A program made the position numbers and the translations under genes. From IMG/VR virus record IMGVR_UViG_2721755727_000004: a stretch of DNA of 14,254 bases; one strand, written 5' to 3'. The notes below the pieces were generated by a model, which was given only the letters and a program-made list of their open reading frames with translations, was not told where the DNA came from and searched no databases. The DNA is from a virus (Duplodnaviria; Heunggongvirae; Uroviricota; Caudoviricetes). Of the stretch, positions 7,412 to 14,254 are shown piece after piece; positions within the stretch are counted from its first letter, which is position 1, and every line of letters starts with the position of its first letter.

Positions 7412-8779
7412 TTAAAGCGAGCGGATCCCGTAGGACTCAATGTGATCAGACAGCGTGTCTTCTTTCTCGTACAGCATGGCTCTGCCAACCGCCATAATCA
7501 GCGCAACTGCACCATCGATTTTGTTTTCCGCCTGCTCCTTGACGGGCTTCACCACATCATCGTTACCCGGAATGGTTTTGCCGACCACGTTGCCGATACA
7601 CCAGGTCATGATGGGATTGCCGTCATGATGAAAGCGCCCCGATTCAATCGCCGCTTCCAGCTCTTTCATCGGATCGGACATGTTGGTGTAGTTCTGAATG
7701 ATGGTGACGGGGTTCAGGTCTTCATCAGCAAGGTCATGTGACAGCCCGGTCGCCCCGAAGGGGTCGATGGGTGACTCACTGACCGGGCTGATTTTGTTCG
7801 CCGCTTTGGCCTCTTCGAGGATGTAGCGATAATCCACCTCCGCACCATCGGTAACGGTCAGAACGCCCATTTCCACCCATTTCTGAAAGCGTTCGGCTGT
7901 CCGGCGATCTTCATTTTTCTCGACGCTGTACACCGTGTCATACGGTACCCAGAAACGCGGGGCCACACTGTAGTAATGCGTTTTACCGTCAATCTCGCGG
8001 GTATAAAGTCGCGCCATGCTGTTCATATCCAGCTTACGCGCCAGGTCAAAGGCCAGAATGCACGGCTGCCCCTCGAACTGCTCAAGGGTCAGTGATTTAT
8101 CCTCGCAGCTCTGCCAGCTCACCAGGTTGAAATACGCCGAACGCGCCGACGCCCAGATATTGAGGTGTTTTGTTTTAAAGACGTTTGCCAGACGGGCGTT
8201 ATTTTTCGCACGCTGCTGCTGACTTAACAAAAATTCGCGATAAACCGACACGCCAATATTTGGATTGGCTTTTTCCAGCACCTGCGGGTCGGTCCAGTCG
8301 TCACCTTCATCAACGGTATAGATGATCCCGAACAGTTCATCGTTTGGCACCGAGCCGTTGAGCATCTCGATGACTTCCCGCCGTTTGTCGTAGCACGGCC
8401 CCTCAATGTTGTACCCGGCGGTGGTAATGGCCCACATCAGTGGCTGGCGTCGCGCCCCCATCCCGGTAAGCATCGTGGTGTAAAGCGCATCTGTGGCGTG
8501 CTCGTGATATTCATCCACCACGGCACAGTGGGGTGATGAACCATCACCCTGGCGACGCGCCTTACGCGTTAACCAGCCTTCTGCTTCCAGCCGTGCGATA
8601 GCCGTTCTGACGGTACTCATCCCCGCGCCAATCTGACGGGCAATGGTTTCAATTGATGGCCAGCACACACCTTCGTCATTACTGAAATCAGCCAGGCGGG
8701 CCATAATTGCCACGCTGGATAACTTCATGCCTGATGCAGCGCAACCATCCCATACATAGCCGGTTAATTTAGTGCTCAT
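7412..8779 (-). CDS. ymfN: Chimeric ORF: N-terminal replication-initiator-type HTH domain fused to terminase large-subunit C-terminal region
   Basis: 455 aa; residues 1-80 HTH ([48 protein letters not shown]); from about residue 85 a terminase region with Walker B-like AVVDEYHE and C-terminal nuclease-type motif [13 protein letters not shown]. Confidence 0.8.
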
Positions 8780-8788
8780 GACCGACCT

Positions 8789-9127
8789 CTATTTCCCTGA
8801 ATTTACGACGAAACTGTTCGAGCGGGCTGAAGCATTCATGCTCATAACCTTCGCGGAGGTAGATAACCCGTTGTGTTTCCGGCTCCCAACGAATGACTCT
8901 GACGGGCACTCCGTAGTGATCTTTGAACCAGCGGTTAACTTGTCGCAAAGGACTGTCTCCTTCTGCCGGTTGAAATCACCCACAGCCCACTCTGCAAAGC
9001 TGTGGGTTACAATTTCCCTGTCACCTGGTACATTCACTGCATAGCAATATTCCACCTTCGCTTTTCCACCCGGTACAGGAAGCGCAATCAGTTGCGAGCG
9101 ACGGTAGTGTGTTGTTAAACTGTTCAT
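8789..9127 (-). CDS. ymfM: Early-operon protein; candidate SOS-inducible cell-division inhibitor
   Basis: 112-aa ORF; start overlaps the ymfL stop (ATGA). Confidence 0.65.
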
Positions 9128-9693
9128 GCGTTAGTTTCTCCACAACCAGAAGCAATCGACGCCACGACGCCCGGAGCTGCACACTCGCGGGCGTCATTAC
9201 TTTCTGAAATGCAAAAAATTTTGTAGACAAGTGCTGCATGCTCCTGCAGCTTCGAAATTGAGAGATACAGCTCGTCGTTAATTGCTGTCTTCTCATGCGG
9301 TTCCACTACACCGTCTTCGATTGCTGAACGAATCTGTTTTGAATAACTGCCGATCTGTTCAATGACTTCCAGCAGACGCTGGTTAATATCGGCGTTGTCC
9401 ACATCCTCGACGTCAGGAAGAGACACAAAGACGCCATTTGCAGACTGCGCCACAGCATCAGCAATGAAGTGAGTGCCACCAGCACGCTGTAAAACCATTG
9501 CCCATCCCAGCGGGAAAATCTGATCGCCATCTGCACGAAGGCGGTTGAATAAAGCGTTTTCTGTTACATCGAGCCAGTCAGCCGCTTCAGCGTAACCACT
9601 CGGCAACGCCGCGATAGTTTTTCTGACAGCTTTCACGTACCACTCAGGCTGTTTTTCTATTTTCCAGTGATGCTTACCCACGATTAGCCTCAT
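9124..9693 (-). CDS. ymfL: Early-operon regulatory protein (CII-like position)
   Basis: 189-aa ORF immediately downstream of croE in the rightward early operon. Confidence 0.65.
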
Positions 9694-9724
9694 CGTTCTG
9701 TGGTTAAAAATTGAAAGTGTTCTG

Positions 9725-9925
9725 CTAATCTTTCGGATAGATATCCGGTCTTAAGTCAGATTTCGTAATTGCACCTGATGTGTATTGCTCAAGTTTTTTA
9801 GCCAGCACAAAACTGGCTTTTTTATAGCCATTGAAAACCAGCCGTAAGTAGCCAGGTGTTGAGCCAACTTTTCCGGCCAACTCGCCCTGCTGTTCTTTGG
9901 TTAAAGAGTCCCAATACGCTTTCAT
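9725..9925 (-). CDS. croE: Cro-like repressor
   Basis: 66 aa (MKAYWDSLTKEQQGELAGKVGSTPGYLRLVFNGYKK...) with HTH; divergent from the CI-like gene across an operator region; GGAGG RBS. Confidence 0.75.
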   Translation of the reverse strand: MKAYWDSLTKEQQGELAGKVGSTPGYLRLVFNGYKKASFVLAKKLEQYTSGAITKSDLRPDIYPKD

Positions 9926-9928
9926 ACA

Positions 9929-9951
9929 ATATGTACCTCCGGTGTACATAT
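9929..9951. promoter_or_regulatory. Operator palindrome ATATGTAC-N7-GTACATAT (OR-like site)
   Basis: Perfect 8-bp inverted repeat with 7-bp spacer between the croE start and cohE. Confidence 0.6.
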
Positions 9952-9979
9952 TACATGATTGAAATGAACCTTCAAGATA

Positions 9980-10000
9980 CTTGTACCTTAACGGTACAAG
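9980..10000. promoter_or_regulatory. Operator palindrome CTTGTACC-TTAAC-GGTACAAG (OR-like site)
   Basis: Perfect 8-bp inverted repeat, 16 bp upstream of the cohE ATG. Confidence 0.6.
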
Positions 10001-10015
10001 GGTTTTAATTTCGTT

Positions 10016-10690
10016 ATGAAAACAATCCATGACATCCGGCGGTCTAACGCCAGAAAACTGAGAGATGGTGTTGGCGGGAATTCTTCCTTTGCCACTATGA
10101 TTGATCGCGAGCCAACCCAGACCAGCAGGTTTATGGGAGATGGTGCTACTAAAAATATCGGTGACAGCATGGCACGACACATCGAAAAATGTTTCGACCT
10201 GCCTGTAGGATGGCTCGATCAAGAACACCAGACAACGAACATCACAAAAAAACCTGATGTTTCAATCACTAATAAACAAATCACATTAGTCCCTGTCATA
10301 TCATGGGTACAGGCCGGAGCATGGAAAGAAGTTGGATATTCTGAGGTTGATTTGAGCACAGCAGAAACGTATCCCTGCCCTGTACCCTGTGGGGAAATGA
10401 CTTATATCTTGCGGGTAATAGGTGATTCAATGATTGATGAGTACCGCCCGGGAGACATGATTTTTGTCGATCCTGAAGTACCTGCCTGCCACGGTGACGA
10501 CGTTATTGCATTGATGCACGATACAGGTGAAACCACCTTCAAAAGGTTGATAGAAGATGGGACACAGCGTTATCTCAAAGCGTTAAACCCAAACTGGCCT
10601 GAGCCTTACATTAAGATCAACGGTAATTGCTCTATAATTGGTACTGTGATTTTCTCAGGAAAACCAAGAAGATACAAAATCAAAGCCTAA
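10016..10690 (+). CDS. cohE: CI-like prophage repressor with LexA-type S24 autopeptidase domain
   Basis: 224 aa; N-terminal HTH, C-terminal S24 peptidase with GDSM serine motif (VIGDSMIDEY) and catalytic lysine region. Confidence 0.9.
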   Translation: MKTIHDIRRSNARKLRDGVGGNSSFATMIDREPTQTSRFMGDGATKNIGDSMARHIEKCFDLPVGWLDQEHQTTNITKKPDVSITNKQITLVPVISWVQAGAWKEVGYSEVDLSTAETYPCPVPCGEMTYILRVIGDSMIDEYRPGDMIFVDPEVPACHGDDVIALMHDTGETTFKRLIEDGTQRYLKALNPNWPEPYIKINGNCSIIGTVIFSGKPRRYKIKA

Positions 10691-10702
10691 TCAATGTTTA
10701 TG

Positions 10703-10725
10703 AACCTGCTTCGGCAGGTTTTTTT
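10703..10725 (+). terminator. Intrinsic terminator after cohE
   Basis: AACCTGC-ttcg-GCAGGTT followed by a T7 run, 13 bp after the stop. Confidence 0.85.
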
Positions 10726-10729
10726 ATAC

Positions 10730-10763
10730 TTGACAATGTACCTTTGAGATACATAATGTACCC
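10730..10763 (+). promoter_or_regulatory. Near-consensus sigma70 promoter with two AATGTACC operator half-site repeats (pL-like) upstream of ymfJ
   Basis: TTGACA (10730-10735), 16-17 bp spacer, CATAAT (10752-10757); AATGTACC at 10735-10742 and 10755-10762. Confidence 0.6.
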
Positions 10764-10864
10764 AAGAGAAACAACAAACAGGCAGGACGCCCACGAAGTA
10801 GCCCGCCCGGTACGTACGAAGACCGGGATGATTCGTTAGCGGATGATTTCAGTGGAGAGAATAG

Positions 10865-11173
10865 ATGAATGAGCAGAATTTGAAGCATGTGATCGCATTG
10901 TTGCTGGAAGACGCTAAACGTTTGCAGCAGATAGAGCCAAATGCAGGCACTGAGGCCCGCATTTTGTTAGCAAAACAGGCATTAAAGACTTGCGGGGCGC
11001 AAGCCCCTGGTCGAACCGAGTTCATGAATTTCATGGCTAACACACTCACCCCTCTGCCATGCAATGGAGAGAAGGTGAGCCGTGTTTATCACGACACAAT
11101 GGTTAAGGCTTTAAGAATCGAGCTTGATGGGCTTAGGCGTAAGATCGTAATGAACGAAATCGTTACCAACTAA
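10865..11173 (+). CDS. ymfJ: Hypothetical protein, first gene of the leftward (pL-like) operon
   Basis: 102-aa ORF with GGAGAG RBS; unknown function. Confidence 0.6.
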   Translation: MNEQNLKHVIALLLEDAKRLQQIEPNAGTEARILLAKQALKTCGAQAPGRTEFMNFMANTLTPLPCNGEKVSRVYHDTMVKALRIELDGLRRKIVMNEIVTN

Positions 11174-11452
11174 GGAAGCAGACGGAAGTAAGCATGCGCT
11201 TTGTTCAAATTTACAGACAAATATATTTGCGTCAACACCGGCACTGTTAGCAATTGAAAATGTTTGATCAAGGATTTGTTGGCAGTTCATTGTACTTTTG
11301 AGGATATATCCCTCTGGAATCAGTCTGCAGCAGCTATCGTCAGACTCTTTAACTGTTTTCTGGTACAGAAAGTTAAGCATTAATTCTTCAAATTTTTTGG
11401 TCTGTTCGGCTGTGTCTTCAAATAGACGAACGTGAACATAAAACTGGTTCAT
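11111..11452 (-). CDS. ymfI: Hypothetical protein, convergent with and overlapping ymfJ
   Basis: 113 aa from MNQFYVHVRLFEDTAEQ with AAGGAA RBS; the longer track ORF starts at an upstream non-ATG codon. Confidence 0.55.
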   Translation of the reverse strand: MNQFYVHVRLFEDTAEQTKKFEELMLNFLYQKTVKESDDSCCRLIPEGYILKSTMNCQQILDQTFSIANSAGVDANIFVCKFEQSACLLPSASLVGNDFVHYDLTPKPIKLDS

Positions 11453-11708
11453 TAAGTTTCCTTGCTTGCTGGCTGTGTGAGAACTCCAGCATACCACCGA
11501 GCCTGAAGTGGTGAAAAGACAGGCACATAACAGCTAAGTATTTTCAACCAGAGAGAATCCTTAGCGTTGTGGTGAATGCGGCTCAGCGCACGCGGGTTAA
11601 GGTTGAGGCTGACAATCGACCTTCTGTGGATACCCACCCGCCTGGTGTGCAACCTTCGCCAGGCACCGGGGGCACCCGACACCACAACTTTATGCTGTGT
11701 GTAGTCTT

Positions 11709-11754
11709 GGCGGTACCAGTTTTTTCCTTAGTCCTTTCTGGTACCGCCCTTTTT
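11709..11754 (+). terminator. Strong hairpin with T-run (intrinsic terminator or attenuator) upstream of xis-int
   Basis: GGCGGTACCAG (11709-11719) and CTGGTACCGCC (11738-11748), perfect 11-bp stem, then CTTTTT. Confidence 0.65.
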
Positions 11755-11916
11755 ACAAAACAGAGAAGAGTATCCCCGGATGACGGGTTAATAACCCGAC
11801 CCATCCTGATAGCTGTGGCCACAGGTGCTCTTCTCTGTTTTGTGGAGAAACTAACCGACCGTGCAGGGTCGATATGCTGAGACTAAGCAGTTAGTGTAGT
11901 AATAAGGTGATCGCAT

Positions 11917-12162
11917 ATGCTTCAAATGTTAACTCTTGAAGAATGGGCTGCTGAAAAATACAGAAGTAATCCTCCAAGTGTGTCCACATTGCGTCGTTAT
12001 GCTAAGCAGAATTTATTTTGTCCACCGGCCATGAAACAAGGCCGGTTATGGCGAGTGCGTGAGGACGCCGAGTTAGTTGGGGAGTTGGTAACACCTGTAA
12101 TCAAGAAAAATGACTCATTACTTTTGCAACGGATTTTGAGTAATGGCAGCCAGACCGCGTAA
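11917..12162 (+). CDS. xisE: Excisionase
   Basis: 81-aa ORF directly upstream of and overlapping the integrase gene; AAGGTGA RBS. Confidence 0.8.
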   Translation: MLQMLTLEEWAAEKYRSNPPSVSTLRRYAKQNLFCPPAMKQGRLWRVREDAELVGELVTPVIKKNDSLLLQRILSNGSQTA

Positions 12163-13270
12163 GAATAATGTTTCAGTCCCTAACTTATATCCGCTTTATA
12201 GTAGGAAGGTAAATAAAGTCTATTGGCGGTATAAGCATCCAGTGACAGGAAAATTCCATGCTTTGGGAACAAACGAAGCTGAAGCTATCGCTATTGCCAC
12301 TGAGGCCAACACTCGCCTGGCTGAACAAAGAACCCGGCAGATTCTGGCTATCAGTGACAGGATCGCAACCAGCAAAGGAAAGGCTATCACAACGTCAACC
12401 TGGTTAGATCGCTATCAAGCGATCCAGGATGACAGGCTTAAAAGTGGTGATATAAGACTCAACACCTATAAACAAAAAGCTAAACCAGTATCCTTGCTCA
12501 GAGAACGAGCAGGAATGAAGTTGATCTCAGCCGTTGATGTCAGAGATATAGCACAATTGCTTGATGAGTATATCGCCGCTGGGCGGCCAAGAATGGCACA
12601 AGTAGTTCGCTCCGTCCTGATTGATGTTTTCAAAGAGGCGCAGCACTACGGAGAAGTACCTCCTGGCTATAACCCAGCATTAGCCACTAAACAACCAAGA
12701 AGAAAAATTACCCGACAACGGCTGAGCCTTGAAGAATGGAAAAAAATCTTCGATATCGCAGACGCTACTCATCGTTACATGGGAAATGCCATGCTGTTAG
12801 CGCTGGTTACTGGTCAGCGGTTAGGTGATATTTCGCGTATGAAATTTAGCGATATTTGGGATGATCATCTTCATGTCATTCAGGAAAAGACCGGGAGCAA
12901 AATCGCAATTCCTCTTTCTCTTCGCCTCAATGCGATTAACTGGAGTTTACGCGATGTAGTAGCCCGCTGCCGTGACTATGCAGTCAGTGCATACTTAGTG
13001 CATTTTTTTCGTTCAACTTCACAAGCAGAGCGCGGAGCGCAGGTTAAAGCCAATACATTGACGATGAATTTTAGTAAAGCGAGAGATTTAGCAAGAATTG
13101 ACTGGGGAGAGGGTTCACCTGCGACATTCCATGAGCAAAGGTCTTTATCTGAACGTCTGTATAAAGAACAGGGGTTAGACACACAAAAACTACTTGGTCA
13201 TAAAACACAACAACAAACCGATCGTTATCATGATGATCGAGGTAAAGGATGGAGCAAAGTAGCGTTGTGA
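12143..13270 (+). CDS. intE: Tyrosine-type site-specific integrase
   Basis: 375-aa ORF; C-terminal catalytic region (LLGHKTQQQTDRYHDD); overlaps xis by 20 bp. Confidence 0.9.
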   Translation: MAARPRKNNVSVPNLYPLYSRKVNKVYWRYKHPVTGKFHALGTNEAEAIAIATEANTRLAEQRTRQILAISDRIATSKGKAITTSTWLDRYQAIQDDRLKSGDIRLNTYKQKAKPVSLLRERAGMKLISAVDVRDIAQLLDEYIAAGRPRMAQVVRSVLIDVFKEAQHYGEVPPGYNPALATKQPRRKITRQRLSLEEWKKIFDIADATHRYMGNAMLLALVTGQRLGDISRMKFSDIWDDHLHVIQEKTGSKIAIPLSLRLNAINWSLRDVVARCRDYAVSAYLVHFFRSTSQAERGAQVKANTLTMNFSKARDLARIDWGEGSPATFHEQRSLSERLYKEQGLDTQKLLGHKTQQQTDRYHDDRGKGWSKVAL

Positions 13271-13360
13271 ACCTTTAAGCATCTCAACGCCACATTGAAT
13301 TTCTCACCGCACATGATAAAAACTAAAAAGTCCACTTTAAGCGAGCGGCGGACAGCCATA

Positions 13361-14254
13361 TCAGTTACTGGTAAGACGTGAAATATCACAGAGAAGATCA
13401 CCTAAAATCGATGAAAAGGACTCCCCATCTAGATTCACATTGATATTTTTGCCATGGAAAAGATATTGAAGCATCACTGTACATAGAGCTTCAATCAACT
13501 CTTCATTTCCGACAGGGTAGCATGAAATATTCGAATATATACGCTCATATGCAGCTGGGTGTGTATTTTGTAAACAGAAGTAATTTTCAACTTCTAAGCT
13601 TTGTATACAAAGCACTGCCGTAGCAATGCCAAGTGCACGTTTCTTTAATTCAGGAGCGGATTCATACAGGTTGCCTAATATCCATTTTGTAGCATGTGAA
13701 TCTGCTTCACGCTCCTCTTGAGTGGAGAATGCTGTAGTGACCAATGGATGCTGTAAAACAACATGACTTATTTCATGATGAAGAATCCAAGCAATAGCAC
13801 AAAGAAATATCTCGCTAGCAACTTGTGAGTCTTCGCTTCCTTGTAAATATGCTTCTGGCTTGGGACATTTTTTAGGCCATGATTCGCAACCTGTTGTTTG
13901 CAAGTTTTTCCTTGCCCATTTAAGAAGTTCATCAGACTTTTTAAGCCTATTTTTTCCTGTTAAATCAAAGTGCTCATCATTATTTTTCTGAGATTTGGAG
14001 TACTCTTGCGTAAAAACCCAAAAGAAATTGGAAAATGCCCAAATATATTCAAGTGAAGCTACTGTTAGAACTATTTCATGTGAATTATTACTCTCATTCT
14101 TCCTGACTCGGATATTAAAACCAGGTTCACTCACAACTGAAATTATAATTTTTTTGTCGTCAACTATCGTTTTAAGATCTTGCTCCTTCTCTGGTGCAAT
14201 CTTAAATGGTGATGAATTAATTGCTGAGAAAAGATGACAAATTGGTGAGCGCAT
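13361..14254 (-). CDS. lit: Lit cell-death peptidase (zinc metalloprotease cleaving EF-Tu when triggered by the T4 Gol peptide; abortive infection)
   Basis: 297-aa ORF starting at the window edge; HEXXH motif (ILHHEISHVV); AT-rich. Confidence 0.9.
   Translation of the reverse strand: MRSPICHLFSAINSSPFKIAPEKEQDLKTIVDDKKIIISVVSEPGFNIRVRKNESNNSHEIVLTVASLEYIWAFSNFFWVFTQEYSKSQKNNDEHFDLTGKNRLKKSDELLKWARKNLQTTGCESWPKKCPKPEAYLQGSEDSQVASEIFLCAIAWILHHEISHVVLQHPLVTTAFSTQEEREADSHATKWILGNLYESAPELKKRALGIATAVLCIQSLEVENYFCLQNTHPAAYERIYSNISCYPVGNEELIEALCTVMLQYLFHGKNINVNLDGESFSSILGDLLCDISRLTSN

Follow-up and report, generated by a model that had tools for sequence, protein, structure and literature searches.

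The immunity region of phage lambda places three operators (OR1, OR2, and OR3) between the divergent cI and cro genes and further operators (OL) at the leftward early promoter PL; its cI gene is read from PRM as a leaderless mRNA, and its repressor CI undergoes RecA-stimulated self-cleavage. Toxin expression in lambdoid Stx phages is, in general, tied to induction of the prophage. Divergent pairs of a repressor gene and a Cro-like gene also occur in the Rac (RacR/YdaS) and Qin (DicA/DicC) cryptic prophages of Escherichia coli K-12, and the e14 locus described here resembles them in this respect. RacR and DicA are not known to carry an S24 self-cleavage domain. The sequence record of Shigella phage SfV (U82619.2) annotates a 69 bp ‘putative operator region’ equivalent to positions 9931–9999 of the DNA that we analyzed. 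The locus is in kind a textbook lambdoid immunity region, and in substance the finding is already known. What our analysis adds is a full map of five predicted operators, their consensus, and their conservation across the repressor family.

The stretch of DNA that we analyzed (14,254 bp; hereafter, the window) is the cryptic, defective prophage e14 of E. coli K-12. When the whole window was compared with complete E. coli genomes by megablast, K-12 strains matched over intE, lit, mcrA, and a chimeric terminase gene, and positions 6000–14254 are the reverse complement of MG1655 e14, base-for-base identical. The 1-kb immunity region is 98–99% identical to that of the Shigella phages SfV and SfIV and ~96% identical to that of Ayreon, 2H10, and a dozen Stx2c-converting phages. 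All of these phages carry the same element as e14 – with 96–99% identity in DNA, 99–100% identity in CI, and all five predicted operators present – though e14, unlike the functional SfV-type phages, is defective, with a chimeric ymfN and truncated structural genes.

Two divergent genes separated by a 90 bp gap form the center of the locus, as in a lambdoid switch. On the minus strand, a cro-like gene (9725–9925, ATG at 9925; ymfT in the MG1655 annotation, also croE) encodes a 66 amino acid helix-turn-helix (HTH) protein with weak Pfam matches to YdaS_toxin – the family of the Rac protein YdaS – and HTH_3, and a match to PHROG 35 (‘transcriptional repressor’, E 7e-14). The rightward early operon, ymfT-ymfL-ymfM-..., begins with this gene; after ymfT come, on the same strand, the CII-like ymfL (Pfam PF06892, PHROG 101), ymfM, which encodes an SOS-inducible division inhibitor, and then the chimeric ymfN. 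On the plus strand, the cI-like repressor gene ymfK (also cohE; 10016–10690) encodes 224 amino acids with a Pfam Peptidase_S24 domain (PF00717). It is followed on the same strand by an intrinsic terminator (AACCTGC-TTCG-GCAGGTT and a T run; 10703–10727) that is evident in the sequence, present in the SfV and Ayreon records, and conserved in homologous loci. Beyond the terminator lie ymfJ and, further on, xisE-intE, the genes that would be read from a predicted PL-like promoter.

An initial annotation of this DNA had placed two palindromes between the cro-like and CI-like genes, and we found both exactly there. Palindrome 1, ATATGTAC-N7-GTACATAT, covers 9929–9951, can be lengthened by one more pair to 9928–9952, and continues imperfectly to 15-nt arms. 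Palindrome 2, CTTGTACC-TTAAC-GGTACAAG, covers 9980–10000. The two were said to share TGTACC/GGTACA, which is true of both arms of palindrome 2 and of the left arm of palindrome 1, whose right arm instead reads T-GTACA. Their unequal spacers (7 and 5 bp) had been taken as a sign of differential affinity, an idea that does not hold up, since both sites share one architecture: in each, two pentamers are separated by 7 bp (TGTAC-N7-GTACA), and the resulting 17 bp cores, at 9932–9948 and 9982–9998, are offset by exactly 50 bp. The apparent 5 bp spacer of palindrome 2 arises because that palindrome reaches one base pair further inward (C...G). We thus define the operator as 17 bp of TGTAC-N7-GTACA, with TGTACC-N5-GGTACA as the fuller consensus. 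Exact matches to TGTAC-N7-GTACA number two in the 14,254 bp window, both within the cro-cI gap, and zero in 200 dinucleotide-preserving shuffles; allowing up to one mismatch gives three window sites where 0.33 are expected.

A published transcription start anchors these sites on the cI side of the gap. Differential RNA sequencing mapped the ymfK mRNA start to the A of the ATG, which gives a leader of 0 nt (Romero et al. 2014, PMC4681348, Table S3), making ymfK one of only five leaderless mRNAs that the study found in E. coli, with the repressor mRNAs of RacR and DicA also leaderless. In the window this start corresponds to position 10016, and PRM can be placed accordingly: its −10 element (TTTAAT, 10004–10009) sits 6 nt before the start, and 17 nt separate it from a −35 element (TTGTAC, 9981–9986) inside the operator that we term O3. 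A TnTAAT sequence is conserved 6–9 nt before the ATG in homologs. O3 itself (TGTACCTTAACGGTACA, 9982–9998) is the core of palindrome 2, a perfect TGTACC-N5-GGTACA that spans −34 to −18 of PRM. The initial annotation had described the palindromes as overlapping the leaders and ribosome-binding regions of both genes. This is so on the cro side, where the Shine-Dalgarno GGAGG falls within palindrome 1. On the cI side there is no leader to overlap, and because the mRNA is leaderless, palindrome 2 is better read as a putative promoter-occluding operator than as a leader or ribosome-binding element.

On the cro side, we predict a minus-strand promoter PR with a −35 element TTGAAG (9975–9970), a 16-nt spacer, and a −10 element TAATAT (9953–9948), which would start transcription near 9940. 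The TTG of the −35 element is conserved in homologous loci, and the −10 element is conserved as TAATAT or CATAAT. The core of palindrome 1, O1 (TGTACCTCCGGTGTACA, 9932–9948; an exact TGTAC-N7-GTACA), spans about −7 to +10 of this predicted promoter; its center lies at −76 of PRM, and the site is conserved at −84 from the cI ATG in ~30 loci. The cro Shine-Dalgarno sequence occupies the central spacer of O1 (minus strand, 9936–9940), which accounts for the conserved CCTCC there. Comparison with homologous loci brought out a degenerate third site between O1 and O3, O2 (TGAACCTTCAAGATACT, 9965–9981), that has three mismatches to the strict consensus and directly abuts O3. It is centered at −43 relative to PRM and at about −32 relative to PR, includes the −35 element predicted for PR, and shows a pattern, TGAACC/TGTACC...CAAGGTAC, that most loci keep at −51. 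We also weighed whether an inverted repeat, TTGAA-N7-TTCAA at 9959–9975, stands as a site of its own; a combination of part of O2 and the PR −35 element accounts for it better. Several related, partly symmetric sites thus overlap both divergent promoters, the overlap with PR depending on a predicted promoter.

A motif scan for TGTACC, a check that the initial annotation had itself suggested, would have led to a second cluster of sites downstream of cI. OL1 (TGTACCTTTGAGATACA, 10737–10753) is the third of the sites obtained with up to one mismatch, has a single mismatch to the strict pattern, and lies just after the cI terminator, where it fills the spacer between the −35 and −10 elements of a near-consensus, PL-like leftward early promoter that we predict on the plus strand (TTGACA, 10730–10735; 16 nt; CATAAT, 10752–10757; start near 10764). 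The Ayreon record annotates a promoter at the equivalent position. The weaker OL2 (TGTACCCAAGAGAAACA, 10757–10773) follows 20 bp after OL1 and spans about −7 to +10 of predicted PL, mirroring O1 at PR. The predicted operators therefore number five: O1, O2, and O3 in the gap, and OL1 and OL2 after cI. In MG1655 coordinates, these two clusters extend over 1,202,951–1,203,017 and 1,202,176–1,202,212, respectively. Both of the originally described sites stand among them, while degenerate O2 and the OL pair had been missed. All three promoters were read by eye, with PR and PL backed by conservation and PRM also by the published start site; a sigma-70 consensus scan of 9600–10300 returned no intergenic promoter (PR or PRM) at the thresholds used.

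To score the five sites independently of e14, we trained a position weight matrix (PWM) on 79 O1, O3, and OL1 sites of other loci, excluding e14 and using no O2 or OL2 sites. The top five of the 14,234 window positions are the five e14 sites: OL1 (26.0), O1 (23.2), O3 (22.3), OL2 (14.2), and O2 (12.3), in that order. The next best position, at 10381 inside cI, scores 8.1, and the one that follows scores 1.1.

We then asked how widely this arrangement recurs. A protein search recovered YmfK homologs in a continuum from 90% to less than 40% identity, and a scan of GTDB representative genomes yielded 71 loci with flanks; the phage collection contained almost no repressors of intermediate (60–95%) identity, and these were supplied by genome contigs. 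The layout recurs in ~33 non-E. coli loci from Enterobacterales, Halomonadaceae, and Salinivibrio, over which repressor identity falls from 88% to 42%. In these loci, TGTAC-N7-RTACA occurs within the 160 bp upstream of the cI ATG at about −84 and −34, with an offset of 50 bp in almost every case, and most of the loci have a third, weaker site at about −51. O3 is conserved at −34 in all group A loci. A gapless, O3-anchored alignment gives three conservation peaks, and these fall on the operators: TGTACCTCC...RTACAT, ATG(A/T)ACC..CAAGG.AC, and CTTGTACC.....GGTACA. Where close relatives differ within the gap, the change lies in an operator spacer, at the R (G/A) position of the right half of O1, or between sites; the TGTAC cores are unchanged. 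The R position also separates e14 from the functional phages SfV and its relatives, in which O1 reads TGTAC-N7-ATACA; at 9942 and 9944, e14 carries G where they carry A, and these two replacements are why its O1 is a perfect palindrome.

Conservation extends to the downstream cluster. A perfect or near-perfect site lies 44–76 bp past the cI stop codon in nearly all enterobacterial group A loci, often with a second 20 bp further on, and in Halomonadaceae the equivalent site lies 0.9–1.5 kb from cI. Many loci keep the left half-site of OL2 at a distance of 20 bp from OL1, its right half being degenerate. The block cTTGACAa[operator]tAATGTACC, with a terminator before it, is almost invariant in more than 25 loci. 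Matches with at most one mismatch number 111 in 178.5 kb, and among the matches listed, only five fall outside these positions. The suggestion that the gap holds the genetic switch is thus borne out in the form of a lambdoid immunity region, and the strong conservation of both position and sequence indicates that the palindromes are almost certainly repressor operators.

The domain make-up of YmfK is that of a lambdoid repressor: an HTH at the N terminus and a LexA/S24 self-cleavage domain at the C terminus. The latter matches Pfam Peptidase_S24 (E 1.5e-26) and the lambda CI C-terminal domain profile (E 1e-16) and retains the conserved self-cleavage residues Ala100-Gly101, Ser138, and Lys176. 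The AlphaFold model (pLDDT 78) has full-length lambda repressor (3BDN) as its best Foldseek match, though the N-terminal domain of YmfK, unlike its C-terminal domain, has no detectable sequence similarity to lambda CI. The closest solved homolog of the DNA-binding domain is Rep of Salmonella phage SPC32H, which we take, in part from the title of its structure entry, to be a Gifsy-type repressor that is controlled by an antirepressor rather than by self-cleavage. Rep (PDB 5D50) shares 36–38% identity with YmfK at an rmsd of 2.0 Å over ~75 residues, and the profile match stops at about residue 127, short of the S24 region.

In the model, the YmfK HTH comprises helices 22–28 and 33–40, the second being the predicted recognition helix (PTQTSRFM). 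This helix reads ...TQxSR... in all loci with TGTAC operators. In contrast, four Halomonas loci whose helix reads SYISR have zero TGTAC sites and carry ATTACC-N4-GGTAAT instead, while keeping the overall layout of three sites upstream (−71, −46, and −31) and two downstream. Since helix and half-site change together, the palindromes can be tied to the repressor HTH. A simple code in which a TQxSR helix specifies TGTAC holds only in part. Distant homologs in Hydrogenovibrio and Thiomicrospira keep TQVSR and have other upstream palindromes, such as ACCAATTGGT, so the correspondence between helix and half-site is not fully explained.

The spacing of the half-sites also bears on whether the two palindromes serve different proteins or binding modes – a CI site and a Cro-only site, for example, with genuinely different geometries. 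The literal palindrome arms are indeed 7 and 5 bp apart. Moreover, nearly every group A locus has a Cro homolog next to the operators, so phylogeny gives no way to decide whether CI or Cro is the reader. The conserved pentamers are, however, equally spaced in O1, O3, OL1, OL2, and O2, and all five fit a single PWM. Nor is the inner C/G that seems to set palindrome 2 apart confined to it: O2, OL1/OL2, and the left half of O1 conserve it too, and some homologs have it in both halves of O1. We consider a division of the palindromes between different readers to be very unlikely.

Two further explanations would remove the sites from the phage repressor altogether. Palindrome 2 might function at the RNA level, as a terminator hairpin or a structured leader: a scan flags 9980–10000 plus GGTTTTAATT as terminator-like, and the RNA of palindrome 2 folds at −13.1 kcal/mol (z = −3.4). 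Yet any perfect palindrome folds, and as an intrinsic terminator this one is poor, with G-C at four of its eight pairs, a T run of four bases, and no plus-strand unit upstream. Its arms are invariant across homologs, without compensatory changes, and the half-site recurs in asymmetric sites that are unable to form a hairpin. The structure is also absent from the cI mRNA, because that transcript starts at 10016, downstream of it. On these grounds a function in RNA appears highly improbable. We give still less credence to the sites being chance palindromes or targets of a host factor such as LexA. A role for LexA might be suggested by the SOS induction of e14 genes and by a review that lists ymfE, ymfI, and intE with ‘potential SOS boxes’ (PMC6590174). 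The LexA box is CTGT-N8-ACAG, however, and here 11 bp, not 8, lie between the TGT and ACA triplets. In addition, e14 genes are induced late and fall outside the LexA heterology-index relation (PMC11002266). Chance is countered by the shuffles, which fail to reproduce the sites, and both possibilities by two further facts: the sites accompany the phage repressor gene from one bacterial order to another, and they differ where its recognition helix differs.

We therefore favor, with high confidence, the reading in which the palindromes are operators of a lambda-type immunity switch of cryptic prophage e14. In the model that we propose, YmfK (CohE) dimers would recognize the 17 bp TGTACC-N5-GGTACA, and YmfT (CroE) would, by analogy, recognize the same sites. 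Repressor at O1 would cover the start site and the ribosome-binding site of the cro operon, and repressor at the weak O2 would cover the −35 element of PR; together with occupancy of OL1 and OL2, perhaps cooperative, this would keep both early operons off. Repressor at O3 would cover the −35 element and spacer of leaderless PRM, resulting in negative autoregulation of cI, while O2, judging by its position, may stimulate PRM as OR2 does in lambda. DNA damage would then trigger RecA-dependent self-cleavage of the repressor and turn both operons on together, releasing the excision functions and the division inhibitor YmfM.

Published expression data fit this model. The genes ymfJ and intE on the PL side rise late in the SOS response, with kinetics that match those of ymfM on the PR side and are unlike those of LexA targets (PMC11002266), and twelve e14 genes form one independently modulated, co-regulated expression module (PMC10602906). 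The gene ymfM, which causes SOS-inducible filamentation, is thought to be under CohE control (bioRxiv 10.1101/2020.11.19.390815). Counting against the model, a massively parallel reporter study that targeted a putative YmfT regulon obtained no consistent footprints (bioRxiv 10.1101/2025.05.13.653802). Our literature search found no direct binding experiment (EMSA, footprint, or ChIP) for YmfK or YmfT; in a gSELEX overview, CroE and YmfK appear solely as prophage regulators that act inside e14 (PMC8249747).

Set against lambda, the e14 locus is similar in its overall plan and distinct in its geometry. Both have cI and cro genes diverging from a gap of ~90 bp, 17 bp partly symmetric operators of which three lie at OR with a weak middle site, more operators at the leftward early promoter, a leaderless cI mRNA, and a repressor that combines an HTH with an S24 domain bearing the Ala-Gly and Ser/Lys residues. 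The center of lambda OR2 is close to that of e14 O2 relative to the two promoters. Unlike in lambda, the e14 half-site is TGTACC, and within the gap the most consensus-like site lies over PRM. The e14 operator centers are 33 and 17 bp apart, with O2 and O3 contiguous, where the lambda spacings are about 24 and 23 bp. The predicted OL region of e14 has two sites 20 bp apart rather than three. In addition, e14 cI directly adjoins PL, so that OR and OL are only ~0.75 kb apart, and there are no rex genes; no N-like antiterminator is evident.

These differences may matter for how the e14 switch operates. O3, the gap site closest to consensus, hints at strong repression of cI by its own product and at an order of occupancy that may depart from that of lambda; the lambda analogy could thus fail in detail. 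O2 and O3 may constitute a 34 bp composite site for a repressor tetramer, or their occupancy may be mutually exclusive, and either arrangement, if true, would set a tight, self-limiting repressor level. An operator code kept from 100% to ~42% repressor identity would further imply a single immunity group that extends from Enterobacterales to Halomonadaceae. Taken jointly, the proposal that the conserved geometry reflects a switch working differently from that of lambda, combined with one very broad immunity group, is speculative and in our estimation rather improbable.

The operator map presented here – five sites, a consensus, and promoters anchored on a mapped start – is directly testable, and it may help to explain the inconclusive reporter screen of the ‘YmfT regulon’. 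For E. coli K-12, the e14 switch gates the SOS-inducible division inhibitor YmfM (SfiC) and the excision of e14, a prophage that also carries lit and mcrA. Beyond K-12, the 96–99% identical immunity region governs the induction of the serotype-converting phages SfV and SfIV and of several Stx2c-converting phages.

Identity between the window and e14 of Escherichia coli MG1655 is complete across positions 6000-14254. To the left, window positions 608-5098 align to MG1655 e14 at 97.7% identity with 87 gap openings over 4.4 kb, and approximately 100-160 bp around 4995-5098 have no alignment to it. The many small indels within 608-5098 resemble what errors in sequencing or assembly would leave, or else point to a K-12 derivative that has diverged; several of the ORFs in this interval would be frameshifted by them.

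Deletion scars of a defective prophage occur at 7412-8779, 6745-7218, and 6027-6857, all on the minus strand. These scars are the fused ymfN, a single ORF in which the N-terminus of an HTH_36 replication protein is joined to the terminase large subunit, and the adjoining fragments beeE (portal) and jayE (baseplate J), the first followed directly by the second. Also on the minus strand, ymfL (9124-9693) encodes a product with hits to PHROG 101 (‘CII-like transcriptional activator’) at E 1e-69 and to the Pfam family Phage_CP76 (‘regulatory protein CII’) at E 9e-13. By contrast, CII is described as absent from SfV, SfIV, and SfII in the genome paper on SfIV (PMC3851460).

Within O1, the predicted operator at 9932-9948, e14 carries a G at positions 9942 and 9944 where the SfV, Ayreon, and Stx2c phages carry an A; the Stx2c phages also differ from e14 at 9941. 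Among these close relatives, O1 is thus perfectly symmetric in e14 alone. The GTACA half is also present in many loci more distant from e14. Sixth in rank by the matrix built from operators of other loci is a site inside the CI-like repressor gene ymfK (10381-10397; score 8.1). It has TGTACC at its left half only and falls within the conserved coding stretch CPVPCG; the match is probably due to chance.

Among the loci with YmfK homologues (designated L), the otherwise e14-identical L004 (E. coli SCPM-O-B-8794) has a cro-like ORF that runs on for more than 230 amino acids, having apparently been joined to downstream sequence through a frameshift or deletion. The Morganella psychrotolerans loci L034 and L035, whose repressor homologue has 43% identity, may represent a decayed switch: O1 and O3 are degenerate, OL1 is good, and neither a cro-like ORF nor CCTCC was found upstream.

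A sister group of repressors from Halomonas and Chromohalobacter (L036, L048, L050, and L051), with the recognition helix SYISR, uses a different putative operator, ATTACC-N4-GGTAAT. Its layout is that of the TGTAC loci: three sites lie ~30-71 bp upstream of the repressor gene, with no gap between the final two, and a further two lie 2.3-2.9 kb downstream of it. The Hydrogenovibrio and Thiomicrospira homologues (L057-L067) have the N-terminal domain alone in common and keep a TQVSR helix, yet no TGTAC-N7-GTACA was found upstream of their repressor genes. They instead carry other palindromes 40-70 bp upstream of that gene (e.g., ACCAATTGGT and TAGCAAATTGGCTA), so the half-site is not fixed by the helix motif alone.
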